Shown: piece by piece, positions 1 to 37,616 of the stretch
Position numbering within the stretch: the stretch's first letter is position 1
Layout of the letters: each line of letters opens with the position of its first letter
Assembly (NCBI GenBank): GCA_048617235.1
Contig: JBMCHT010000002.1
Location: forward strand, 63,899 to 127,898
Direction: 5' to 3'
Length of the DNA: 64,000 nucleotides
Source of the DNA: Patescibacteria group bacterium
GTDB lineage: Bacteria > Patescibacteriota > Minisyncoccia > Phycocordibacterales > XYD1-FULL-46-19
The notes under the pieces: generated by a model
The model's input: the letters and a program-made list of their open reading frames with translations, nothing else
What the model was told of the DNA's origin: nothing
Database searches by the model: none
Made by a program: the position numbers and the translations under genes

Positions 1-2466
1 TACCCGTGATGTCTGTTGATATGACGCAGTTGCTACATTTGTTATAAGTTCATCGGCCAGAGCGTTGAGATGTTCACTATTAGTATCTGCCAGAATCTCA
101 TCTATATCACCCTTAAAGAATTCTGGGACTCGATCCCAAGCCTCACGTCTGAGAGAAAGAAACTTCTGTTGAGCAACAGAAACCCATTGTCGCAAAAACA
201 TCGCGGGTGGATAATGATGTTTTTCTTCTTCGGGCAGAATAGATTCTAACAAGGAAATGATTGAATCAGTATCCTCGTGTGAGTTATCAAGTGATGTAGC
301 GAGTGAAATAAAATCTTCTCCACTTCTATCCCAGCGATTCGACATAACTGTATCCACAAACCATCTCCACCTCTCATCCTGCGGCGCTGTTGCTTCTAGG
401 GAAGTGAAATCTTCAATGTAGTACTCGTGCGCCGCAATAGATCTGTAAGCAAGATAATCTGGAGTTCTGTTTATTAAATGTAGTAAATCTCTACTCGCCT
501 CTGTTCCTTGTGTCATGCGTGCCCAACAAAGAATGAGTAGGTTCTCAATCTTGCTGAGTTCATGAATTGATAGATTGTCTTGTTCGTTTTCGAGAAGGTT
601 CCTTATAACCTCTTTTGCCTGCCTCCTTTCTTCTGGAAAATTATTAGCAAGTGGTACAGCAGAAGCATCAATCTGTCCACGGTGAGTAGAACCTATTGAT
701 TCAATAACAGGTATTGCTAAACAAATCCGGCCAGAAACAATAAGTTCTTTCAACGCCTCCATAGCGGCACTTCTCATTTCTTGAACCTCATTAATGTTAC
801 GTAGTGCCCGTTCCCCAAAAGTCATTTTGTTGCCGTACGAGTATCCTGTTTTGTGGGAAGCTCTTAAAACTTCCGAGAGACCATCCGAAATAAGTTTAAG
901 CTCAACTGAATCAGCAGATGCAATCCTATTTCTTAACAGTTGAATACGGGAAGTGATCTTTCTTGGCCCAGAAATTAGTGGGGACATGTAATCTTGCATT
1001 AACTCAAGCGACTTATAGTTATCGTACATACCCACCTTTACTGATACGCTTATACGCAGAATTGCGCTAAAGAGAGACCCTTCTTCATTTTCAAAAGAAA
1101 TTAGACTCTTTAGAAGTGGTCCGAATGAGTCTGTAGACAAATCAAGTTCTTCTCTCTCAACGCGAGAGAGAACTGAAAAGAGAAAATCAAAACAAGTATT
1201 TGCGGCAAAGTGAGAGACTCTCGACAACCAATCAATTCGGTTTTTAATTTCCTGTATCGAAAGTCTGTCAATTTCAGTAATCCATTGTGTAACAATTGCG
1301 TTCATTGCGCCTACAACTTGGGTAGCATCGTTGTCACGATAAGCACTTCCTAGATTCCCGAAAATACGCTCGGGATTGATATTTGTCCACTCTGTAATTA
1401 GACTAGTCACTTGATCTTGAGTGAAGTTGGTCATCCGAAAGGATAGGAAAATGTCACCTATAATATCTGCGTTAAAACGGATTGTTCTACCAACTTGTTT
1501 TAACACACCTGCTCGTATAAGCCGCTTCAAGGAGTCTTCAACTACAGCAACTGAAGAGTTTGTTCTGCTGGCTAATTCCTCAAGAATCCGCGCATCCTGC
1601 TCGTTAAAACCCGAAATCATAGCCAACTGAGTCAAAAGATTTTCAATATCAAGATTGACCCCTCTCATTACTGAACGAGTATCGGACAGCACATCCTGAG
1701 TTATTCGTTCTCTAAAAGCTTGTATGTTTTCAATGGGTTCGTTTTTGAGTTTTTTACCCATTAACACAATGAGGTAAGGATTGGGGTATTCTCCCAAAAT
1801 TACCTCTTCTGCATCAATTGTCTCCAATCCAGATACTCTGTGTAAGAGAGTGCTTAATTCATCCGCTGTCCAAGAAGTAATCTCTATCTTTTCTCCCGCC
1901 GATCTCAATCTTTGTCGTGTAATTGTCTCTTCAACAAAACTCAACCCGGCCGATCTGAAAGCAAAAATGATTTTTACGTTATTTCTGCTTCTATCCCTAT
2001 TCAAAAACTTTAGAAAAGGTAGGAGCTCTTCCTCATTTTTATCAGCAGCATCATCTAAGATAATTAGATATTTTCCTCCTCTACCAATTGCTGACAATAA
2101 ATCCTCTCGCAATGGACTTCCAGGTTTTACGATGAGTATTCTTTGATCTTCCTTAAACCTAAACGACGCTTCTCTTAGTAGGTGAGACTTTCCATGACCA
2201 GCGGGACCGTATATTAAAAGAAAATCTTTATCATCTGAATCTAAAAAACTTTCGATATCAGAAAGATATCCATTGAATCTATCAATTATGGTTACTGACA
2301 AATTAGTTAATTCAGGTTCTGATTCTTTAAAGTATTGTTCTGGTGTGGCAAAAGAAGGATGATGTTTGAAAATGTAGTTAAAAAATTTACCTGTGACCCA
2401 TCCAGGAAAATACGACAACAGGTTAGATACTAGGAAGAAAAGAATTTTTGCTAGCAAGGCTTCCAT
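1..2466 (-). CDS. STAND-like P-loop NTPase, partial; the C-terminus runs off the window and at least 822 aa are visible
   Basis: I translated the reverse strand by hand from the ATG at 2466 down to position 1 and found no stop. The ORF track omits it because it is edge-truncated. It has a Walker A FLLIYGPAGHGKSHLL and a Walker B KYLIILDDAAD (hhhhDD, STAND-type), an N-terminal hydrophobic helix (LLAKILFFLVSNLLSYFPGWV), an HTH-like segment (EQDARILEELASRTNSSVAVVEDSLKRLIRAGVL) and then several hundred aa of helical repeat-like sequence. It starts 5 nt after the res stop on the same strand. Confidence 0.6.
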   Translation of the reverse strand, partial: MEALLAKILFFLVSNLLSYFPGWVTGKFFNYIFKHHPSFATPEQYFKESEPELTNLSVTIIDRFNGYLSDIESFLDSDDKDFLLIYGPAGHGKSHLLREASFRFKEDQRILIVKPGSPLREDLLSAIGRGGKYLIILDDAADKNEEELLPFLKFLNRDRSRNNVKIIFAFRSAGLSFVEETITRQRLRSAGEKIEITSWTADELSTLLHRVSGLETIDAEEVILGEYPNPYLIVLMGKKLKNEPIENIQAFRERITQDVLSDTRSVMRGVNLDIENLLTQLAMISGFNEQDARILEELASRTNSSVAVVEDSLKRLIRAGVLKQVGRTIRFNADIIGDIFLSFRMTNFTQDQVTSLITEWTNINPERIFGNLGSAYRDNDATQVVGAMNAIVTQWITEIDRLSIQEIKNRIDWLSRVSHFAANTCFDFLFSVLSRVEREELDLSTDSFGPLLKSLISFENEEGSLFSAILRISVSVKVGMYDNYKSLELMQDYMSPLISGPRKITSRIQLLRNRIASADSVELKLISDGLSEVLRASHKTGYSYGNKMTFGERALRNINEVQEMRSAAMEALKELIVSGRICLAIPVIESIGSTHRGQIDASAVPLANNFPEERRQAKEVIRNLLENEQDNLSIHELSKIENLLILCWARMTQGTEASRDLLHLINRTPDYLAYRSIAAHEYYIEDFTSLEATAPQDERWRWFVDTVMSNRWDRSGEDFISLATSLDNSHEDTDSIISLLESILPEEEKHHYPPAMFLRQWVSVAQQKFLSLRREAWDRVPEFFKGDIDEILADTNSEHLNALADELITNVATASYQQTSRV

Positions 2467-2471
2467 GGCAT

Positions 2472-4751
2472 CTAGAGTGTTAGTTTCTTACCATCTACCT
2501 TCCAACCATTTGGACCATCTTGCACCACGATACCGCCATCAAAATTCTTTTTGCCTTTTAACCAATCCTTTAGAGCTTGTTTCTTATACTGCATGTCATT
2601 ACTTTCTGCAGTAAAGCCAGCTTTAGTATCGAGAATCCAAATCTTATTTTTTGTCTTTACAATCCAGTCAGGATAAAAGAGTCGCTCACGATTTTCTGTC
2701 TCGTGATAATACGGAATGGAGAAGTATTCACTTCCAGAGTCACCGTTTTTGTACCACCACTCGACCTTGCTTGATGATTCAAGATACTTAATAAACTCTT
2801 TTTCATTTTGGACAGGTTCTTTCTGAATATAGAAAGGTTGCATTGCAGACTTTTTGACTTTCATTTCTTCATAGAGATCGGTGAAAAATAGGTATTCTCT
2901 CGGTATTTCAAGTACTTCGGTTCGACGTGTTCGTTTAGCTTTCTCTTTGACTTCCTTTTCACGAATCGGGCGATACTTTTCTAGTGTCTCACCAAGAATA
3001 GGTCGTAGTACACTATCTGGGCGGAGTAGATCATTTACAATAACTTTGTAATAATCTTCACGAGCGAGATCAAGAAGGTTAGAAAAATATACGTTCAGTG
3101 CGGTTTTCAACTTTCCCCATGAACGTTCTGGTGCAAATTTCTTATTCTCATCTTCTTGCTTGGAAATGATATTGAAACAGAGAAGATTATAGAGACGCTC
3201 CAGATCATTACGTGATATTTCATTTGAAAGCTCTGCTGTACTTTCTCTTAGCTCCTCAACGAAGTTGTCGTAGTTTTCTATCTCAGCATCAACAATAAGA
3301 CTACTTTCTACTTTCACATCAGTGACATCGAGACTTTGTTCTTTAAATTTCTTTTTTATCTGAGCTTTCGTGTCTCCATCTTTAATGCCAAGTTCTTTGT
3401 TAGCAACTTGCCTGAACGTCTTCTGGAATGAATCACCCAGGTCATTGTAGTCAGCACGACTCATGAAAACAGACTCAAGCTCTATCGGCTTAATGTCTTT
3501 CTTGCGTCGACTGATTTGTGTGGCAGGACGATTTTCTCCTTTCTGCTTATCGTACTCAGCAAGGATCTGATTCCGTTCGTAGTTTGTATATAAGTATCCA
3601 ATGTTAAGCTCGGGCATTGGATAATGAATGGCTTCTGGCATACGAAGAATTCTACCGACAGTTTGAATATGAAAGACTGGGCTTTTAATTTCTCGATACA
3701 TCACCAAAATAGCTGCACGAGGACAATCCCATCCAGTCGCGGCTGCCTGTTTGAAAACTAAAAAGTTTATCTCTGAATCACTTTTTTCAATTTCGTCTAA
3801 ATTCTCTTTGTCGTTTGAAAGCCAAACAGCAACATTATGATCTTCTTCTCCTTTATCTTTAAGGAAATCTAAAACAACATCCTTCTTTGATTTATCTAAG
3901 GTTTCCTTACGAGCCTTGTCATCATTAGGGAGCTGAACAAGTACCAGAGGATTAATATCAACACCAAGTTTTTTATAACTCTTCTTAAGCTCTAAACGCT
4001 TTGAGTATGCAAGATCAAGCAAAAGAAGATCTTGATCAATCTCTTTCTTGGCTTCTTTCTCAATATCCTCCTTAGTCTGAGTTATAACTTTTTCCTTAAT
4101 TAGACCTTCCTCTATAACCGCATCACGTTCCACCTCCACAAAACCAACCTTTTTGTTCTTCACATCAGAATATGATGGTTCTTTCTTTGGAGTGGCTGTA
4201 ATTTTAAGGATGATACGAGGATCAATCAGGTTAATAAGCTCTTGAGCCAGATCGGTACTTGCATCACGATGAGCTTCGTCAATAATCAAAACGATTTCCC
4301 GACCATCTGCTTGCGATTTCTGAATAAAAGAGTCAAAAGTAATATCGTTCTCGTTTTCTTTACGTAACTTGCGACCATCTTTTGTTGAAGTTTTAATTTT
4401 TTGCCAATTAATAAAGAAAACGCTGTTCTTTTCTAGTTTTGCGTTTCGAGTAAGGTCATTTAAATCAAGTAGTTCGATTTCTCCGGCTCCGCCATAATAT
4501 TTAAAAAGTTTTTTCTTGCTCTGCTCGTATGATTCTTCGTTGAAAGTGAACCACACAAATGCCTTATCAGCATTAAATTGTGGATCGCCTGTTAAGTCAC
4601 GCAAAAACTGAGCGGTCATTACTGTCTTTCCTGAACCAGTTGGTGATTTAAAAATAAGCTCGAGCCTACGATTTCCAGTACCCCAAAGTTCGAGAAAACT
4701 TTTTCGTAGTTCAGCTATCGCTTTTTCTTGAAAGGTTTTAAGTGTAAACAT
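2472..4751 (-). CDS. res: Type III restriction endonuclease, Res subunit (SF2 helicase plus C-terminal nuclease)
   Basis: 759 aa with helicase motif I SPTGSGKT and motif II IIDEAH, and a C-terminal PD-(D/E)xK-like WILDTK. It sits directly downstream of the mod gene. Confidence 0.85.
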   Translation of the reverse strand: MFTLKTFQEKAIAELRKSFLELWGTGNRRLELIFKSPTGSGKTVMTAQFLRDLTGDPQFNADKAFVWFTFNEESYEQSKKKLFKYYGGAGEIELLDLNDLTRNAKLEKNSVFFINWQKIKTSTKDGRKLRKENENDITFDSFIQKSQADGREIVLIIDEAHRDASTDLAQELINLIDPRIILKITATPKKEPSYSDVKNKKVGFVEVERDAVIEEGLIKEKVITQTKEDIEKEAKKEIDQDLLLLDLAYSKRLELKKSYKKLGVDINPLVLVQLPNDDKARKETLDKSKKDVVLDFLKDKGEEDHNVAVWLSNDKENLDEIEKSDSEINFLVFKQAAATGWDCPRAAILVMYREIKSPVFHIQTVGRILRMPEAIHYPMPELNIGYLYTNYERNQILAEYDKQKGENRPATQISRRKKDIKPIELESVFMSRADYNDLGDSFQKTFRQVANKELGIKDGDTKAQIKKKFKEQSLDVTDVKVESSLIVDAEIENYDNFVEELRESTAELSNEISRNDLERLYNLLCFNIISKQEDENKKFAPERSWGKLKTALNVYFSNLLDLAREDYYKVIVNDLLRPDSVLRPILGETLEKYRPIREKEVKEKAKRTRRTEVLEIPREYLFFTDLYEEMKVKKSAMQPFYIQKEPVQNEKEFIKYLESSSKVEWWYKNGDSGSEYFSIPYYHETENRERLFYPDWIVKTKNKIWILDTKAGFTAESNDMQYKKQALKDWLKGKKNFDGGIVVQDGPNGWKVDGKKLTL

Positions 4752-4753
4752 AA

Positions 4754-6394
4754 TTATTTCTTGTTAATTTCCTTGTATACTTCAAGGATCGGTTCTGGAA
4801 TATCTTCAACTCGAATATTCTTATATTCAGAAAACTCGTTTTTATACTCATTCTTGCCCCAACTAAAGATATATAGAGCTGCACTGTCAGATTTGCTGAT
4901 TTTACCAACAAGCTCGTCAAGCTTTTCTTTATCTTCTTTAAAGTAAATAGCGGTAGTTCTACCTTTCTTGTCGATAAATATCTGCCACCAGTCATTTTTT
5001 TCTCTCTCTGTGAGTGTGTCCTCTCGCAATGCAATCATACGACCTGCCTGATAGGTAAGTTCGATTTTCTTGTGGTCCGAAACATTGTGTACTGACTCAA
5101 CATCTACAAACTCTGTCTTGTAATATCGAAGGTTTGATGGGATGCCTTCTGTATTACCATATCCCTCAATTACATTCTTTATGCGTGGATATGTAATTTC
5201 TCGAGCAATACCGCCTTCATTATTTGTACACAAAATAAATTTGTGGTTCTGATTATATTTTTGATTGATTAAAGCAACAGCATGTCCTGTGGTTTCTGAG
5301 CCAGCAAAAAAATCCAACACTGTAGCGTTTTCTTTATCATAAATCACCGTTTCTAAACATTTAGCTGTTGCAAAAAGTGACTTTGGATAAGGAAACTCTG
5401 ATCCTACAATATTTTTAACCAGCATTGTTCCATACTTACCTGCATCTAATTCACCTCCAGTCCAAACTGTTTTATATCTAGCCGAAACAGCAGTAACATA
5501 CAGCTGGTAATCTCCTTTTCTTTCCTTAACTTCTATTCTCTTTACATGGTTTTCTATAGAATCTATACCAAAGTGCCATCTTCTCTCATCTCCCTTATCA
5601 TCTATTGGCCACACTTCGATCTCTCCATTATCTAAACTTTTACTTCTTTGAGATGGATGAAAATTTACATCTGGAACCTGACCTATACGAACAACTTTTC
5701 CATCTTTAACATAAATAGGAAAGAACATTGTTGGTCGATCAGTTCTATATGAGGCACGTCCAGCACGCCTTAGATTTCTTGTATCAATTTTATCCTCAGG
5801 ATTTTTGCCGATAACAGATTTACCCTTTGGAATCACAAAATGAGCATATTCATGTGATTCTGAAAAATTTCTACTTGGTAAACCTTTAGGGTTATGCTCA
5901 ATTACAATAGTAATTATTTCATGTGTTGGGAATAATTCAGCAAGAAGTATTAGCAGTGTGCCGTTTTCATATTTATCAATTGTGGCAATTAATACACCAT
6001 CATCTTTTAGAAGATTTTTGGCAATCCTAAGACGATTATTCATCATGGATATCCATTTGCTGTGGCGGAATGAGTCATTCTCATCCACGTAGTCATTATT
6101 GTATTTCCAATCCTTAGCACCTGTATTGTAAGGTGGGTCTATATAGATTAAATCTATACTCTTACGATGAGTATAATTTAAAACAGTAAGTGCGTGATAA
6201 TTATCACCCTCGATAAGCAAGTTTGTAGGTTTTTCTAGACTCTTTTCTACAATCTTTTTTTCATCCTCACTAAAAATTGGAATCTTTGTTTTACATTGTT
6301 CAACAACATCTTCTGGTTTATCTTCCCAAACCAAACCGTAAGATTTTCGAGACTCAAGTTTCTTGATCTCCTCAAGCAATTCCTCCTTATTCAT
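4754..6394 (-). CDS. mod: Type III R-M N6-adenine DNA methyltransferase, Mod subunit
   Basis: 546 aa with the DPPY catalytic motif (LIYIDPPYNTG) and a later FFAGSETTGHA SAM-binding-like motif. Its stop is adjacent to the res start. Confidence 0.85.
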   Translation of the reverse strand: MNKEELLEEIKKLESRKSYGLVWEDKPEDVVEQCKTKIPIFSEDEKKIVEKSLEKPTNLLIEGDNYHALTVLNYTHRKSIDLIYIDPPYNTGAKDWKYNNDYVDENDSFRHSKWISMMNNRLRIAKNLLKDDGVLIATIDKYENGTLLILLAELFPTHEIITIVIEHNPKGLPSRNFSESHEYAHFVIPKGKSVIGKNPEDKIDTRNLRRAGRASYRTDRPTMFFPIYVKDGKVVRIGQVPDVNFHPSQRSKSLDNGEIEVWPIDDKGDERRWHFGIDSIENHVKRIEVKERKGDYQLYVTAVSARYKTVWTGGELDAGKYGTMLVKNIVGSEFPYPKSLFATAKCLETVIYDKENATVLDFFAGSETTGHAVALINQKYNQNHKFILCTNNEGGIAREITYPRIKNVIEGYGNTEGIPSNLRYYKTEFVDVESVHNVSDHKKIELTYQAGRMIALREDTLTEREKNDWWQIFIDKKGRTTAIYFKEDKEKLDELVGKISKSDSAALYIFSWGKNEYKNEFSEYKNIRVEDIPEPILEVYKEINKK

Positions 6395-6573
6395 TTTTGA
6401 GTAATCTTTTGATATGTTATTTTAACATTAAATCACATTTAGACTTATTTTTCCATCTTAAATTTATCTCTCCAACCCTAACATTTATTGAGAAATATAA
6501 GTAATAAGTTACCAACTCTATCCTCTCCGGACGCTCTAGACTCCCCCAACCTATTCTGTCATTCCTTAGAGAT

Positions 6574-7611
6574 ATGGAAGAAATAGAGATCAAATATGTC
6601 CTCTGTGCTCGAAAGAGCTCAGAAAGTGATGAAAAACAAGCTCTCTCAATAGAGGCGCAAGTTAAAGAAATGATCCAGATGGCTGAAAGAGAGGATTTGG
6701 AGATAGTAGAGATACGTCGAGAATCTCATTCAGCTAAAGACTCAGGTAAAAGACCAATATTTAATGAACTTCTGAAAGATATTAGAGATGACAGATTCAA
6801 TGGAATAATTGTTTGGCATCCAGATAGATTAAGTAGAAATGCTGGAGATCTTGGTAGTTTAGTAGATTTAATGGATCAGAAGAAACTAGTGGAGATAAAA
6901 ACTTATGGGCAGAAATTTACCAATACTCCTAGTGAAAAGTTTCTCCTCATGATTTTATGTAGCCAAGCAAAACTGGAAAATGACAATAAAAGCGTCAACG
7001 TTAAGAGAGGCTTAAGAATGAGATGTGAGATGGGCTTGTGGCCAGCGCCGACCCCCACAGGATATTTAAATGAAAAGAGGATAGATAGAAAAGGTTATGT
7101 CTATATTGATAAAGAAAGAGGTCCGGTAATAAAAAAGATGTTTGAGAAAGTTGCTTATGAAAAATGGTCAGGTAGGAAGGTATATCATTGGCTTAAGTTT
7201 GATTTGAATTTCAAAAGTTCAACCAGTGGTAAAAACTTAACTTTAAGTAATATATACAGATTACTACAAACCCCTTTCTACTATAGTCGGTTTGAATACC
7301 CCGCTGGTAGTGGTAATTGGTACCAAGGAAGACATGAACCATTAATAACTGAGGAATTGTACCAAAAAGCTCAAGAACACCTTAAAAGAGATAGAATTAC
7401 CCGAGGAGAATCTAAAGAATTTGCTTTCACTAGATTAATACACTGTGGGTTATGCAAATCCGGAGTCTGTGCTGAAGAGAAGTTCAAAAAATTGAAATCC
7501 GGAAAAACCTTAAGGTATGTCTACTATGGGTGTAATAGATCAAAAGACAGATTCTGTAAATGTGGCTACATTCGAGAAGAAAACCTAATCAAAGACTTAT
7601 GGATCAAATAG
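6574..7611 (+). CDS. Large serine recombinase (resolvase/invertase catalytic domain, recombinase domain and zinc ribbon); the C-terminus is truncated by a frameshift
   Basis: The N-terminus YVLCARKSSESDEKQALSIEAQ carries the catalytic Ser context, followed by the recombinase domain and a Cys ribbon (CGLCKSGVC...YYGCNRSKDRFCKCG). The ORF ends at a TAG at 7609. Confidence 0.8.
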   Translation: MEEIEIKYVLCARKSSESDEKQALSIEAQVKEMIQMAEREDLEIVEIRRESHSAKDSGKRPIFNELLKDIRDDRFNGIIVWHPDRLSRNAGDLGSLVDLMDQKKLVEIKTYGQKFTNTPSEKFLLMILCSQAKLENDNKSVNVKRGLRMRCEMGLWPAPTPTGYLNEKRIDRKGYVYIDKERGPVIKKMFEKVAYEKWSGRKVYHWLKFDLNFKSSTSGKNLTLSNIYRLLQTPFYYSRFEYPAGSGNWYQGRHEPLITEELYQKAQEHLKRDRITRGESKEFAFTRLIHCGLCKSGVCAEEKFKKLKSGKTLRYVYYGCNRSKDRFCKCGYIREENLIKDLWIK

Positions 7612-7877
7612 ATGAACTAGATGTTAATGATGTGGCTGTACAGAAGAAGTTCCAAGCTGAATATACTAGAGCCAGTAGATTTCAAAAGAAGTTTTTAGGA
7701 AAAGAAAACAGTAAAGTGAAAGTGGATAATTTAGATATTAAAAGTTATATAAAACATGTGTTGATCGAAGGAACCGTTGAAGAAAAAAGAGAACTATTGG
7801 GAGAGATACAAAATAAATTAATTTTAAAAGAAAGAAAAATTATTTTGGAAAACATAAGTAACGACAGCGGCAATTAA
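7560..7877 (+). pseudogene. C-terminal coiled-coil segment of the same serine recombinase, in the -1 frame
   Basis: The 105-aa K/E-rich helical ORF overlaps the 3' end of the previous ORF in another frame. Together the two pieces are about 435 aa, typical of a large serine recombinase. Confidence 0.55.
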
Positions 7878-8768
7878 AATAATTAATACACCTATAAAAA
7901 TTTTACCGAAAGGTTTTTCATGCCACTCTTTAGATATGTTTAAAGTTTTTTTAAGAGACGTTTTTTTAAAATTATCTCCAACACCAAAATGAATTTGTGA
8001 ATTATTAATAACAGGATCTTGGTCTTTTTCATTTACAATAGCACTATTTTCAATATCATAATTATTATTGGAAACAATAGAAACATTTTTACCTCTAATT
8101 AGTAATCTCATATCCTCACAAAATAAGACATCATTCATCGAATTAACAGCCTTTATCCATTCATTTTTATCACCTTTATATATTTTTATATCCACAAGCC
8201 TCAGAACAACCTTATTTAAGTCATAATCTGAAAGCTCTTTCAAAACACCCAGAACCCAATTCTTTCTTGTAGAACCATCATGTTTTACATTTATCCCAAT
8301 CTCTTGAAAAAATTTAGTTAAATAAAAAGAAGATCTATAGATTGGAAATTTTTCTGCGTTATCTCCACATATAAAATCTGCAATATTTTCCAAAGTCACA
8401 TCATCAATATCACTTAATACGACATCGCTTTTAATAACAGAAAAATAATTATTTAACTTTTCTTTTATAAAATTAAAATCTTTTATAATTTTTACCTCTT
8501 CTTCTTGTTTATGAGAAGTTATATTTTCAATAAGATCAACAAAATCCTGGATTTTATAAACTATATTTTTAATACTTTCTAAATTTAAATTATTTAGATC
8601 AAGACCCTCAAAAGATTCAAGTGCAACATTTAATTTAAATTGCCATTCTCCATTATCACCCACATCAACAGTATCAGATAAATTTTGAAGATTCCTTTGC
8701 ATATCTTCTATTGTGGATATACAAAGTTCGTTTAAAAATATATTTTTAAATACTATGTCATTATTCAT
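7824..8768 (-). CDS. Hypothetical protein with a C-terminal TM helix
   Basis: A 314-aa ORF at about 22% GC against about 40% for the core. I recognise no motif in it. Confidence 0.5.
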   Translation of the reverse strand: MNNDIVFKNIFLNELCISTIEDMQRNLQNLSDTVDVGDNGEWQFKLNVALESFEGLDLNNLNLESIKNIVYKIQDFVDLIENITSHKQEEEVKIIKDFNFIKEKLNNYFSVIKSDVVLSDIDDVTLENIADFICGDNAEKFPIYRSSFYLTKFFQEIGINVKHDGSTRKNWVLGVLKELSDYDLNKVVLRLVDIKIYKGDKNEWIKAVNSMNDVLFCEDMRLLIRGKNVSIVSNNNYDIENSAIVNEKDQDPVINNSQIHFGVGDNFKKTSLKKTLNISKEWHEKPFGKIFIGVLIILIAAVVTYVFQNNFSFF

Positions 8769-8814
8769 AATAATTAGGCATCTCGGTCTTGCGCGATACC
8801 TCTACTTGCTCGTG

Positions 8815-8885
8815 CTGCCCGGCAGGGACTCGAACCCCGATTTCTTGGACCAAAACCAAGCGTCCTGCCATTAGACGACCGGGCA
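8815..8885 (-). tRNA. tRNA-Gln (anticodon TTG)
   Basis: Hand-folded: acceptor TGCCCGG/CCGGGCA, anticodon arm CTTGG-TTTTGGT-CCAAG, T-arm CGGGG-TTCGAGT-CCCTG. No CCA is encoded. Confidence 0.8.
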
Positions 8886-9065
8886 ATATAACTTAAACTA
8901 TACTATACCACAAACGGGTTCGAGTCAGGGACTCGGTCACAACTCTCGCTTCGCTCGGTCGCGACCCCGCCTCACAGTTGTTGTGTCGCTTCGCTCCTTA
9001 CAACATGTTCCGGCTCTGACTCTGGCACGGAAGCCAAGCAGTTGGCTTCCTACTCCGTTTCACTA

Positions 9066-9131
9066 CGTGCCCGGGTCAGCCCCTCTTCTTGGACCAAAAC
9101 CAAGCGTCCTGCCATTAGACGACCGGGCAAT
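9066..9131 (-). repeat. Degenerate partial second copy of tRNA-Gln (pseudo-tRNA or att remnant); 9086..9131 is a 46-bp perfect direct repeat of 8842..8887
   Basis: The 46 nt 'ttcttggaccaaaaccaagcgtcctgccattagacgaccgggcaat' occur identically at both sites. The second copy keeps the acceptor 3' strand 'tgcccgg' but replaces the T-arm with 'gtcagcccctc'. Confidence 0.7.
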
Positions 9132-9161
9132 CTTTCCTATTCTGCCTCAAACCGCTTCATT

Positions 9162-9803
9162 TTACAAGTTTTCCAAACTTAATTCTTCAAATTCATCATC
9201 AAAGTAATAAAGAAAAGGACCTCGAAATTCCTGTAATAAACCTTGGGAATTATAAGGGGAAATAAAGCCAAAACCGTCTTGGTAATCAGACCATTTTAAA
9301 AGTAGAATATCTTCTAAATCTGAAGGTTTAATATTATCCCGATCCAAATCGGTTACAATGTTGGTGGCTATCGGTAATACCGCTTCAGCTTCGGCTTGAG
9401 GTAAATATGTTCTAACAGTTTCATCGGCTAAATCTTCCAAAGAGACAAAATCCGAATACTGATAAGCCAATAGATAATTATCTTGTAATAATTTTTCCTT
9501 CATCTTCGAAGAGACTTCTCTGGCTAAAGCCGGACGACTGGACAAAATAACATCCACGGCACCGGTTTTTAGTAATTGAAATGAATCCATTGAAGAGGCA
9601 GTCCTCACTTCTTCTAATCCATACTGAGATACTAATTGTCCACCGTATTTATCTATATTGGGGCAAAAAGCCAAAGACGGCTTGGAAGCTGTCAATACAG
9701 CTGCCGGAGAATATTTGGTTAAATTATTAAAATTAACAACCAAAAGTAAAACAATAATCAAAAGTATTCCGCCACTTAGCCATAAAATTTTATTTTTTAA
9801 CAT
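9162..9803 (-). CDS. Hypothetical membrane-anchored protein
   Basis: 213 aa with an N-terminal TM (ILWLSGGILLIIVLLLVV). I recognise no catalytic motif. Confidence 0.5.
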   Translation of the reverse strand: MLKNKILWLSGGILLIIVLLLVVNFNNLTKYSPAAVLTASKPSLAFCPNIDKYGGQLVSQYGLEEVRTASSMDSFQLLKTGAVDVILSSRPALAREVSSKMKEKLLQDNYLLAYQYSDFVSLEDLADETVRTYLPQAEAEAVLPIATNIVTDLDRDNIKPSDLEDILLLKWSDYQDGFGFISPYNSQGLLQEFRGPFLYYFDDEFEELSLENL

Positions 9804-9808
9804 AATTA

Positions 9809-10831
9809 TTACTTATTGTCTTGTTCGGCTATTTCCAAAACAACCAATTCCAAAGGTAAACCGGGATCAAATAACCAAGCCTGGTTATCCCAAGCTCGAA
9901 CTAACATTTTTAAGATAGCCGGTAAATATTTTTGACGGGGGTTATTAGCCAAGTTTTTGACCGTCTCCGGCGAAAACCAACGATCATCCGGAATAGTATT
10001 TTTAGTTAAAGAATAAAGGGTGGCTTGTCTTATTAACTGAGTTAATAATTTGGTTAAAAGCCGAATATCTACTTGAGATTGTCTGGCTTGGTTAATTAAA
10101 TCTATAGCTGTGGAAGAATCGTTATCCAATAAAGCTTGAGCCAATTTATTTAAAAGTTCAATCCCCGGAGCTCCGGTTAACTCTTGAATCTCAGCCAGGG
10201 TTATTTTTTTATCCGCCGCTACTTGTTGCAATAAACCCAGAGCATCCCGAAAAGAGCCATTAGCCAACTCAGCGATTAAATCATCAGCTCCGGTGGGTAA
10301 TTTTAATTTCTCGGCTTTGGCTGTTTGGCTGATAACCGTTTTTAATTCCAAAGCAGTTGGCTGGCGAAAGATGTGGGTTTCACAACGGGATTTAACCGTC
10401 TCCGGCATCTTTTCGGCTTCAGTGGTAGCTAAAATAAAAATAACATGAGATGGCGGTTCTTCCAGAGTCTTCAAAAGTGCATTAAAAGCAGACTTAGACA
10501 ACATATGAGCTTCATCTATAATATAAACCTTATAAGAGGAAGCAAAGGGTAAACTATAAATATCTTCTTGAAGGGCTCGGATATCGTCAACACCGGTATT
10601 GGAGGCGGCGTCTATTTCAATTATGTCTTTATCGGCTACTTGTAAGGTTTTGGCTAAAATTCTGGCAATACTGGTTTTACCGGTACCCCGAGAGCCAATA
10701 AATAAATAAGCTTGTCGTGGAGTGCCGGCGGTTACCGCTTGTTTTAAAACCGAAACAATATGGGTTTGCCCCACTACTTGATCAAAAGTTTGCGGTCTAT
10801 ATTTTCGGTACCAAGCTAAATATTCAGTCAT
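9809..10831 (-). CDS. dnaX: DNA polymerase III subunit gamma/tau (short form)
   Basis: The N-terminus WYRKYRPQTFDQVVGQ, a Walker A GSRGTGKTS, a DEAH-like IIDEAHML and the SRC motif are all present. Confidence 0.85.
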   Translation of the reverse strand: MTEYLAWYRKYRPQTFDQVVGQTHIVSVLKQAVTAGTPRQAYLFIGSRGTGKTSIARILAKTLQVADKDIIEIDAASNTGVDDIRALQEDIYSLPFASSYKVYIIDEAHMLSKSAFNALLKTLEEPPSHVIFILATTEAEKMPETVKSRCETHIFRQPTALELKTVISQTAKAEKLKLPTGADDLIAELANGSFRDALGLLQQVAADKKITLAEIQELTGAPGIELLNKLAQALLDNDSSTAIDLINQARQSQVDIRLLTKLLTQLIRQATLYSLTKNTIPDDRWFSPETVKNLANNPRQKYLPAILKMLVRAWDNQAWLFDPGLPLELVVLEIAEQDNK

Positions 10832-36669: not shown

Positions 36670-36744
36670 GGCACGGTGGTGAAGTGGTAACACAGCGGTC
36701 TGCAAAACCGCGATGCGCGGGTTCGATTCCCGCCCGTGCCTCCA
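36670..36744 (+). tRNA. tRNA-Cys (anticodon GCA), CCA encoded
   Basis: Hand-folded: acceptor GGCACGG/CCGTGCC, anticodon arm GCGGT-CTGCAAA-ACCGC. Confidence 0.85.
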
Positions 36745-36789
36745 AACACTTTCCGAATTTATTTTTTTTTGCTAAAGTATATATACCCT

Positions 36790-36871
36790 GCTCGGGTGGC
36801 GGAACTGGTATACGCGCACGACTTAAAATCGTGTGCCGCAAGGCGTGCGGGTTCGATTCCCGCCCCGAGCA
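36790..36871 (+). tRNA. tRNA-Leu (anticodon TAA)
   Basis: Hand-folded: acceptor GCTCGGG/CCCGAGC, anticodon arm CACGA-CTTAAAA-TCGTG, and a long variable arm. Confidence 0.8.
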
Positions 36872-36879
36872 CAAAAAAA

Positions 36880-36905
36880 TCGGCGCTTATTTAAGCGCCG
36901 AGGCA
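36880..36905 (-). terminator. Rho-independent terminator of the 90-aa ORF
   Basis: The minus strand reads cctcGGCGCTTaaatAAGCGCCgattttttt. Confidence 0.55.
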
Positions 36906-37159
36906 AACAGTCGGAAAACGAGGTAACCAAGCATCCCCGCCATCACGACCGTTATGAGTGATTCCAGCAACTCCGGTGCAAACCGGAGTAAGAACCAAAG
37001 AATTCCTAGTCCAACCAACCACGGAGTGGCCCATTGGATAAGAGTCCTCAGCCCCCGGCCAATTCCCGTCGCCACTTCCCGAATCAGGTCGGCTATCAAA
37101 CCGACCCAAAACAAACAAAAACCTCTTAAGATATTCATAGCTTTCTCCTTTCCCTGCAC
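36887..37159 (-). CDS. Small 2-TM membrane protein
   Basis: 90 aa at about 55% GC, followed by its own terminator. An alternative start MNILRG lies at 37138. Confidence 0.45.
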   Translation of the reverse strand: MQGKEKAMNILRGFCLFWVGLIADLIREVATGIGRGLRTLIQWATPWLVGLGILWFLLRFAPELLESLITVVMAGMLGYLVFRLFASALK

Positions 37160-37292
37160 TTTAAGTGCTTTGAATTCTTTTTACAGAAAAACATAGTTAT
37201 ATAAAATTGTCAAATAGTCTGGAATTGATCTTTCTTATCGGTTATAATTAACTAAAGGTCATTTATTTTATTAAATTTAAAATAATTATTTT

Positions 37293-37520
37293 ATGCCGAC
37301 ACTTTTTGCTATTGTTTTTTATCTTTTATTAATAGACAGTTTAGGAGCGGTTTTAGTAGCTTGGTTTGGTTGGGGAGATAATTGGTATTATAAAAATCTA
37401 CCTAGTTTTTCTCGCTTTTTTCCTTTATCCAAAGGTTGGGTTAGTTACTACTTAATCTGGTCCTTGTGGTTGGGAATTGTTTTGTGGTATTTTGAAGTCT
37501 TGCCGTGGCCGGGAATGTAA
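37293..37520 (+). CDS. Small Trp-rich membrane protein
   Basis: 75 aa with two hydrophobic segments, AT-rich. Confidence 0.35.
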   Translation: MPTLFAIVFYLLLIDSLGAVLVAWFGWGDNWYYKNLPSFSRFFPLSKGWVSYYLIWSLWLGIVLWYFEVLPWPGM

Positions 37521-37543
37521 TTTTAATTTAATAATAATTTTAA

Positions 37544-37616
37544 GCCCCGTTAGCTCAGTTGGTAGAGCAGTTGCCTCTTAAGCAAACGGTCGGGGGTTCA
37601 AATCCCTCACGGGGCA
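37544..37616 (+). tRNA. tRNA-Lys (anticodon CTT)
   Basis: Hand-folded: acceptor GCCCCGT/ACGGGGC, anticodon loop CTCTTAA, T-arm GGGGG-TTCAAAT-CCCTC. Confidence 0.75.

Follow-up and report, generated by a model that had tools for sequence, protein, structure and literature searches.

An Avs-like STAND NTPase of the nSTAND5 family without its N-terminal nuclease, located behind Type III restriction-modification genes of a Patescibacteria bacterium

The stretch analysed here comprises 64,000 nucleotides (nt) of a Patescibacteria group bacterium (contig JBMCHT010000002.1, positions 63,899 to 127,898; hereafter, the window) and begins within a minus-strand gene for a large STAND NTPase, P0001, that directly follows the genes mod and res of a Type III restriction-modification (R-M) system. 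We propose that P0001 is an Avs-like antiviral STAND protein of the nSTAND5 family that has lost the nuclease of its relatives and is carried as cargo behind mod-res, a reading to which we assign a probability of roughly 0.6. Avs-like STAND proteins as such are well known; the copy in the window is an effector-less variant in a genome of the candidate phyla radiation (CPR). Its NTPase and sensor are not decaying, being as well conserved as in other family members.

The minus-strand frame from 2466 to 1 comprises 822 codons without a stop and exits the window at its left edge. In a word-indexed search of 5.8 billion proteins, the complete product was identified as MFW5853273.1, a protein of 1146 amino acids (aa) from a Patescibacteria metagenome-assembled genome (MAG). 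The 3' end and the genes beyond it are present on L001, a longer public contig, where the full STAND gene spans 6377-9817. The TAG stop codon of res (2472-2474) is followed by 5 nt (ATGCC) and then by the ATG at 2466. An in-frame stop lies 8 codons 5' of this ATG and no start codon separates the two, so that translation cannot begin before ATG 2466 and a longer N-terminus is ruled out; the TTG codons 4 and 17 are possible later starts. Intergenic distances are 2 nt between mod and res, 5 nt between res and the STAND gene, and 12 nt between the STAND gene and the next open reading frame (ORF), and a scan for promoters and terminators gave fewer matches than in shuffled sequence. This spacing suggests that the STAND gene is co-transcribed with mod-res, probably by read-through. 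The uninterrupted frame of at least 822 aa on the strand of res, 5 nt past its stop, which a preliminary description of the window had reported, was thus borne out, and the gene was found to contain no internal stop codon that would mark it as a pseudogene.

The Pfam family nSTAND_NTPase5 (PF25199) matches aa 70-172 of P0001 with 36.3 bits, above the gathering cut-off of 34, and the score on the full-length protein is 35.6 bits; ATPase_2, AAA_16 and NB-ARC are weaker Pfam matches. The Walker A motif GPAGHGKS is located at aa 87-94 (window 2185-2208) and the Walker B motif LIILDD at aa 134-139 (window 2050-2067). In at least 80% of 64 family cores the residues G90, G92, K93, D138 and D139 are conserved, and R171 is also conserved across the family. 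A profile of the NTPase and the winged helix was made from 16 family members and searched against solved structures. Its best match was Avs4 (8dgf_A), with an E value of 1.4e-6 over 189 positions; DnaI/DnaC-type loaders matched the P-loop part of the profile alone, with E values of 6e-4 or worse.

The AlphaFold model of P0001 was built on six sequences and has a mean predicted local distance difference test value (pLDDT) of 74.7. Its P-loop domain is of moderate confidence. The following winged helix consists of helices at aa 274-284, 292-301 and 306-319 and strands at aa 322-325 and 328-331, with pLDDT values of 82-91; the corresponding sequence match to HTH_24 is weak (E value 0.08). The remaining helical region of about 800 aa (aa ~340-1146) is modelled confidently. 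In a Foldseek search against the PDB, human SAMD9 was the top match (E value 6.7e-6), followed by importins, condensin HEAT subunits, CAND1 and NLRP9. The fold by itself does not separate P0001 from AAA+ proteins of the ORC/Cdc6 type, but sequence profiles and architecture point to a STAND protein.

These results agree with most of what the preliminary description had read from the sequence. Both Walker motifs are present and conserved across the family, the helix-turn-helix-like segment corresponds to the modelled winged helix at aa ~274-331, and the helical, repeat-like stretch is an all-helical HEAT/ARM-like region that extends from aa ~340 to 1146. The suggested STAND or Avs-like character is likewise supported, by the nSTAND_NTPase5 score above the cut-off, Avs4 as the best profile match, SAMD9 at the top of the Foldseek matches, and the defence genes next to relatives. 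The statement that no named system could be matched has to be revised, as P0001 belongs to Pfam nSTAND_NTPase5 and to a family of at least 248 clusters.

The nSTAND5 family and its N-terminal effector position

An exhaustive phmmer search of 1.84 billion cluster representatives yielded 248 related clusters at E values of up to 1e-3, including 101 at up to 1e-30; the word-indexed search alone recovered five relatives. Most family members have 1260-1300 aa. The family is scattered patchily over bacteria and archaea, and 21 other family loci stem from Omnitrophota, Bathyarchaeia, Methanobacterium, Theionarchaea, Halobacteria, a deltaproteobacterium and others. The nearest relative of P0001 has 32% identity, and none is closer. 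Residues 33-1142 of P0001 are collinear with residues 141-1281 of P0002 (30% identity, E value 5e-168), and PF25199 also scores above its cut-off in relatives (P0059, 42.7 bits; P0062, 51.2 bits). The Pfam family covers only the NTPase core of about 145 aa and is silent on effector, sensor and function; a literature search for nSTAND5 by that name returned unrelated papers only.

All close relatives have about 140 additional N-terminal residues. Among the 72 assessable full-length representatives (at least 1000 aa, with a locatable Walker A motif), 55 carry an Mrr/MspJI-like PD-(D/E)xK nuclease-like domain in this position. In an alignment of 20 sequences, E25, D42, D46 and K67 are invariant and Q65 is nearly so (P0019 numbering), which gives an E...D...QxK pattern. 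Pfam and PDB sequence searches did not recognise the domain. Its AlphaFold model (pLDDT 86.2) has an alpha-beta3-alpha-beta-alpha-beta topology, and its Foldseek matches, with modest E values of 1.5e-3 to 0.1, represent largely the restriction-endonuclease fold, with AspBHI, MspJI, EcoT38I, Can2 and the Rpb5 N-domain among them. The highest TM-score was obtained for the N-terminal nuclease of Avs4 (0.48, TMq). The domain also occurs as a stand-alone protein of 199 aa, P0019, whose gene in a Bacteroidota MAG (L010 7103-8600) comes immediately behind a CAP12-PCTIR_TIR gene.

Other family members have different N-terminal modules, namely TIR_2 in P0159 (35.8 bits), DUF4062 in P0180 (54.3 bits) and an HNH-like module in P0176. 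A hydrophobic helix leads a helical N-domain in P0114, P0124, P0126 and P0136, and hydrophobic N-modules are present in P0059, P0080, P0084, P0093, P0104, P0107 and P0110. Five of these seven have Kyte-Doolittle means of 2.1-3.1 and at least two segments; P0093 and P0104 are weaker, with 1.8-2.0. Judging from these sequences, the N-terminus is a swappable effector position of the nSTAND5 family. The standard order of the family is an N-terminal effector (usually the PD-(D/E)xK nuclease), the P-loop STAND NTPase, the winged helix, and a HEAT/ARM-like sensor of about 800 aa. A variable effector joined to an NTPase-sensor unit that stays constant is the hallmark of immune proteins of the Avs/NLR-like kind (PMC13581612).

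Like most family members, Avs4 (SeAvs4, PDB 8dgf) has an Mrr-like PD-(D/E)xK nuclease, a STAND NTPase and a long helical sensor. However, the likeness is confined to the NTPase and, in the relatives, to the nuclease fold; P0001 lacks the nuclease domain, and its C-terminal region matches generic HEAT/ARM proteins and SAMD9, not Avs4. A search with the Avs models of PADLOC 2023 gave neither an Avs4 match nor any other significant match for P0001 and six relatives. The family is Avs4-like in module order, yet it is not Avs4. For SAMD9 and for Avs5 (SIR2-STAND), TM-scores with P0001 are low (0.16-0.18) and a sequence-level match is lacking; the effector of Avs5 is a SIR2 domain. A census of 2026 (PMC13581612) distinguished 589 STAND clades. 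Of these, 198 are associated with defence, and the defence-associated families with distinct structures number at least 90.

Defence genes recur next to the relatives; the association is one of observed neighbours, not an enrichment statistic. One family member (L005) lies in an island with AbiE, RadC, a Type I R-M system, a reverse transcriptase, and a D12 methylase with ParB. In L017, HsdM-HsdS-Fic-HsdR-YgjP are encoded directly upstream on the same strand, and the YgjP gene overlaps the start of the STAND gene. A SIR2 gene is located 32 nt upstream of the STAND gene in L014, and L012 has a Vsr gene upstream and a DUF4062 gene downstream. Integrases were found in L002, L003 and L005, and PDC-S05 is also among the neighbours of relatives. 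The DUF4062 proteins of L005 (13810-14589) and L012 (4174-5016) are homologous (33% identity, E value 2e-35) and are encoded 4-12 nt downstream of nuclease-type members in loci that are otherwise unrelated; together with the N-terminal DUF4062 fusion of P0180, they may represent a recurrent partner or a split effector.

The N-terminus of P0001 is the shortest in the family, with the Walker A motif at residue 87, and its first ~32 residues are unique. No remnant of the nuclease was found by BLASTP and tblastn in any frame of the window and the contig. In a crude neighbour-joining tree the five nearest relatives of P0001 are all of the nuclease type, and therefore the loss of the nuclease in P0001 is derived. 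Residues 28-39 show a marginal match to the linker of nuclease-type members (21 of 200 shuffles), which agrees with this placement. The remainder of the protein is intact. Of the 43 core columns with the highest conservation, P0001 has kept 88.4%, and the family mean is 88.6%. The N-terminal effector postulated in the preliminary description thus exists as a position in the family, where 55 of the 72 representatives carry a nuclease, but P0001 itself is devoid of an effector module.

In place of the nuclease, P0001 has a short hydrophobic stub. The hydrophobic segment described earlier does exist, at aa 3-21, but as a transmembrane (TM) helix it would be borderline. Its Kyte-Doolittle mean over 19 aa is 1.66 (the classical threshold is about 1.6), and a crude sum on the Hessa scale is +4.4 kcal/mol, whereas genuine TM variants have mostly negative or lower values; buried helices of soluble homologues are as hydrophobic. 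With a single hydrophobic segment, the stub falls below the clearest TM modules of the family (Kyte-Doolittle 2.1-3.1, two or more segments). The pLDDT is about 30 for aa 1-40. Pfam, PADLOC and hidden Markov model searches gave no match for the stub. It is rich in F, L, I, Y, N and K (FLIYNK 0.59 vs 0.35), and the composition of the first 96 nt of the gene is not unusual.

Three possible origins of the stub were considered and rejected. A descent from helix 1 of the nuclease, suggested by a MAFFT alignment (LFFLVSN vs LFALECN), scored -1.7 in a profile and shuffle test, in which 74 of 300 shuffles were as good or better. Kinship with the last TM helix of TM-type relatives, indicated by a by-eye pattern W-x-x-G-x4-[YF] and a phmmer run-in, was matched by 114 of 200 and 139 of 200 shuffles, respectively. 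No similarity to the alternative cargo genes described below was found that would make the stub a fragment of one of them.

Further cases of altered N-termini or reading frames were encountered in the family. In L023, a full nuclease domain (1710-2213) is in frame with the STAND gene, and a TAG codon (1779-1781) replaces the codon of the invariant catalytic glutamate (LFAL*CNSP); the corresponding stretch of L024 (1014-1517) is identical in DNA, the two being ENA and JGI assemblies. The STAND ORF, P0061 (1168 aa), restarts downstream of the TAG. This configuration looks like a targeted disarming of a toxic nuclease, although chance may also account for it. P0056 has no N-module, and no remnant is present upstream of it. 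Two family genes are split into overlapping ORFs, in L013 (9572-13407, 982 and 306 aa) and in L018 (9542-13346, 1041 and 238 aa); these splits are frameshifts that represent either pseudogenes or assembly errors. Runs of small ORFs in L009 and L011 resemble heavily frameshifted family copies.

The variable slot behind mod-res

The relation of the STAND gene to the R-M system was analysed by comparing loci with similar Res proteins. Homologues of Res with a similar length number more than 4,800, among them relatives of 96, 96, 94 and 89% identity. In both loci with a 96%-identical Res, mod-res is followed within 4-11 nt by other genes: an 811-aa DEAD/Helicase_C_2 helicase and an 81-aa ORF in L026, and a 333-aa protein of unknown function, a DUF2779 protein and a serine recombinase in L027. 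The cargo-slot comparison thus comprises three loci (window/L001, L026 and L027). By blastn, about 2.85 kb of L001 are similar to L027 (86.3%, 3505-6370) and to L026 (85.6%, 3523-6370), and in both cases the similarity ends at L001 6370, which is window position 2473. By blastn, the centre of mod (window ~5338-6009) is not similar to L026 and L027, which are otherwise 70-86% identical over window 2472-6394; an exchanged target-recognition domain of a Type III Mod would fit this pattern.

Similarity to L026 resumes beyond the slot with a non-coding block of 163 nt (L001 10490-10652, L026 10954-11116, 92% identity), about 1.65-1.81 kb beyond the left edge of the window. L027 shares only a 25-nt piece of it (10584-10608). 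Neither an ORF nor an Rfam match was found in the block, which may represent an att site, an island end or a small RNA. Between the STAND gene and the block, 12 nt past the STAND stop, lies an ORF of 217 aa (L001 9830-10483) with a CxxC...CxxC zinc ribbon (C72, C75, C93, C96) and perhaps a helix-turn-helix. Searches of Pfam and the PDB gave no match for this ORF, and it has no recognisable effector domain. Its first 37 residues match the 81-aa ORF of L026 (E value 3e-7). Because the two ORFs share this N-terminus, the small ORF belongs to the backbone of the island, and it is the large gene that is exchanged as cargo. The possibility that the 217-aa ORF is a conserved downstream partner of the STAND gene was rejected, as it is unrelated to the DUF4062 partners in L005 and L012 and shares its module with the L026 ORF.

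In the reverse direction, tblastn searches with Mod, Res and the recombinase of the window against the 21 other family loci gave no match. The linkage of the STAND gene to the Type III system is thus not conserved in either direction, and therefore a role as regulator or component of the R-M system, one of the options of the preliminary description, is unsupported. Other types of R-M systems do recur near relatives, as expected in defence islands. Taken together, the STAND gene is neither a component nor a regulator of the R-M system but cargo, carried in the variable slot of an R-M island that is probably mobile.

The order in this island is tRNA-Gln, serine recombinase, mod, res, cargo, small ORF and the 163-nt end block. 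The serine recombinase is presumed to be the mobility gene, and the recombinase of L027 is distantly related to it. On the opposite side, beyond the window, the island borders on an aminoacyl-tRNA synthetase gene (L001). Direct repeats of the att type longer than 11 bp were not found flanking the island. Cargo hotspots in defence islands are a general concept of the field, and the locus resembles them in its constant backbone, with mod-res on the left and the small ORF and the 163-nt block on the right, between which the STAND gene is present here and the helicase gene in L026. L027 deviates from this pattern, with different genes after res and only the 25-nt piece of the block. Upstream of the bordering synthetase gene, L001 10816-10993 matches a T-box leader with 48 bits (E value 2.4e-9), below the gathering threshold of 93.

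Possible modes of action and their significance

For Avs1-5 and Avs7-21 it is established that the sensor binds a phage protein, that the NTPase then oligomerises, and that the effectors kill or arrest the cell. By analogy, binding of a conserved phage protein to the solenoid sensor of P0001 would be followed by oligomerisation, driven by the NTPase, and the clustered N-termini of the oligomer would act. We tentatively suggest that the bundled hydrophobic N-terminal helices might perturb the membrane, as the two-helix TM modules of relatives presumably do. Although this output is itself far from assured, it is the likeliest single one, because some relatives carry TM modules at this place and the rest of the gene is undamaged. 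In the resistosome of the plant CC-NLR ZAR1, a short N-terminal helix that predictions do not class as a typical TM segment presumably builds a funnel in the membrane once the protein has oligomerised; it would be a precedent for an effector that consists of a marginally hydrophobic N-terminal helix. ZAR1 serves as an analogy for the proposed output only. Its helix belongs to a coiled-coil domain of four helices, whereas P0001 has a stub of about 30 aa without confident structure.

Several points weigh against the proposed reading. The defence role of the family would follow from architecture and genomic context, and no family member is recognised as Avs1-5 by PADLOC 2023. In every Avs system tested, cell death was lost once the effector had been deleted (PMC13581612), and for this reason an effector-less copy may be inert. 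The N-terminal helix is a single one, is borderline for membrane insertion and is unstructured in the model. By its sequence the stub is an orphan, without significant similarity to the TM modules of relatives, and a translation start at TTG codon 17 would remove the helix altogether.

P0001 could accordingly be an inert or decaying remnant, in which the nuclease was lost by deletion during cassette exchange at the res stop or by selection against its toxicity, and the stub is no more than a chance supplier of a start codon. The derived loss of the nuclease (five nearest relatives of the nuclease type), the low model confidence and FLIYNK-rich composition of an orphan stub, and the inactivity of Avs proteins after experimental effector deletion would all fit such a remnant. 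The nuclease has also been lost independently in L023/L024, where the STAND ORF persists behind the TAG at the catalytic glutamate codon, P0056 lacks an N-module, and frameshifts divide two further family genes (L013, L018). However, a stop-free ORF of 3.4 kb with average core retention (88.4% vs 88.6%) is unlike drift. The genomes of Patescibacteria are small, and the terminal branch of P0001 is not obviously longer than that of its sister. The argument from the intact ORF is qualified by the fact that the loss could be very recent. All in all, we consider a remnant unlikely, albeit deserving of serious attention.

A sensor without a fused effector might instead signal to one in trans, either to Res or to the 217-aa zinc-ribbon ORF. 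This would agree with the close spacing on the same strand of res, the STAND gene and the downstream ORF, with the PD...DxK nuclease motif that Res itself carries at its C-terminus (FYPDWIV...ILDTKAG, aa 692-712, window 2616-2678), with the defence genes upstream of relatives on the same strand (Type I R-M and YgjP in L017, SIR2 in L014) and the DUF4062 genes downstream (L005, L012), and with the stand-alone N-domain gene of P0019 next to a TIR gene. Yet 96%-identical Res proteins are followed by unrelated slot genes, none of the 21 other family loci contains a Type III system, and the N-terminal module of the 217-aa ORF, which lacks a recognisable effector domain, is also found behind the helicase of L026 and thus belongs to the island backbone. 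A partner in trans is therefore improbable. A specific version, in which the STAND protein senses a phage protein and recruits or unleashes Res, so that methylated or R-M-resistant phage DNA is cut, is suggested by the tight spacing, a nuclease in Res and none in the STAND protein, and the R-M operons upstream in L017 and L005; as the same mod-res occurs with unrelated cargo and the 21 other family loci have no Type III system, we regard it as very improbable. Hardly credible is a housekeeping or mobile-element AAA+ helper (Cdc6/Orc1-like or DnaC/IstB-like) or a transcriptional regulator of the R-M operon. The winged helix and weak P-loop matches to DnaI/DnaC loaders and Hda/DnaA would be compatible with such a role, but the loader matches span only about 60-100 residues of the P-loop, in contrast to the longer and stronger match to Avs4, and the nSTAND5 score exceeds its threshold. 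Moreover, TIR, nuclease, DUF4062 and TM effectors of relatives, combined with an 800-aa solenoid, are not the architecture of loaders or initiators, and the R-M system also occurs without the STAND gene.

Among the immune systems of prokaryotes, STAND sensors of the Avs type form a major branch, and the fused effector was needed in every tested case. A well-conserved, full-length copy without a recognisable effector is a natural test of whether such proteins can work otherwise, be it with a minimal hydrophobic helix, with a partner in trans, or as a non-killing sensor or decoy. If P0001 is inactive, it shows how such toxic genes decay; a second relative, in L023/L024, is disarmed by a stop codon at its catalytic glutamate. 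If Res did serve as effector, pattern recognition would be coupled to restriction. The family itself, with an nSTAND5 core, an Mrr-like nuclease and a solenoid of about 800 aa, is uncharacterised, occurs in archaea and bacteria, and is missed by PADLOC 2023. To our knowledge, the defence repertoires of Patescibacteria (CPR) are poorly characterised. The sharp slot after res, closed by the 163-nt block, suggests cassette exchange of defence cargo and could be mined for new systems.

Features of the window and additional observations

Table 1. Coordinates of the STAND gene, its domains and the island features in the window.
Feature	Window position	Strand	Basis
STAND NTPase gene, first 822 of 1146 codons, cargo downstream of res	1..2466	-	Open frame; P0001 = MFW5853273.1; collinear with P0002
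Orphan hydrophobic stub, aa 1-32, in place of the nuclease domain of ~140 aa	2371..2466	-	Hydrophobicity, pLDDT, similarity tests
STAND P-loop NTPase core, aa 70-172	1951..2259	-	PF25199 match; Avs4 8dgf_A profile match; conserved motif residues
Winged-helix domain, aa ~274-331	1474..1647	-	AlphaFold secondary structure; weak HTH_24 match
All-helical HEAT/ARM-like C-terminal region, presumed sensor	1..1449 (aa ~340-822, onward to 1146)	-	AlphaFold model
Left boundary of the variable slot, inside the res stop	2472..2474	-	blastn similarity ends at L001 6370 = window 2473
Type III restriction subunit Res, 759 aa	2472..4751	-	ResIII/REase_III matches; helicase motifs GSGKT, DEAH
Type III methyltransferase Mod, 546 aa	4754..6394	-	PADLOC MTase_III 1e-67; Pfam N6_N4_Mtase
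Serine recombinase, 345 aa, divergent from mod	6574..7611	+	Pfam Resolvase, Recombinase, Zn_ribbon_recom; NCBIfam CcrB-like
tRNA-Gln, far island edge, possible integration site	8814..8885	-	ARAGORN, Rfam

Two minus-strand ORFs without a Pfam match, at 7824-8768 (314 aa) and 9162-9803 (213 aa), flank the tRNA-Gln gene between the recombinase gene and holB. Further into the window, the segment 37713-39577 has a G+C content of about 53% in a genome of about 36% and encodes an SPFH/Band-7 protein (343 aa) and a 276-aa ORF without a Pfam match. Three tRNA genes (36670-37616) adjoin this segment, which was probably acquired horizontally.

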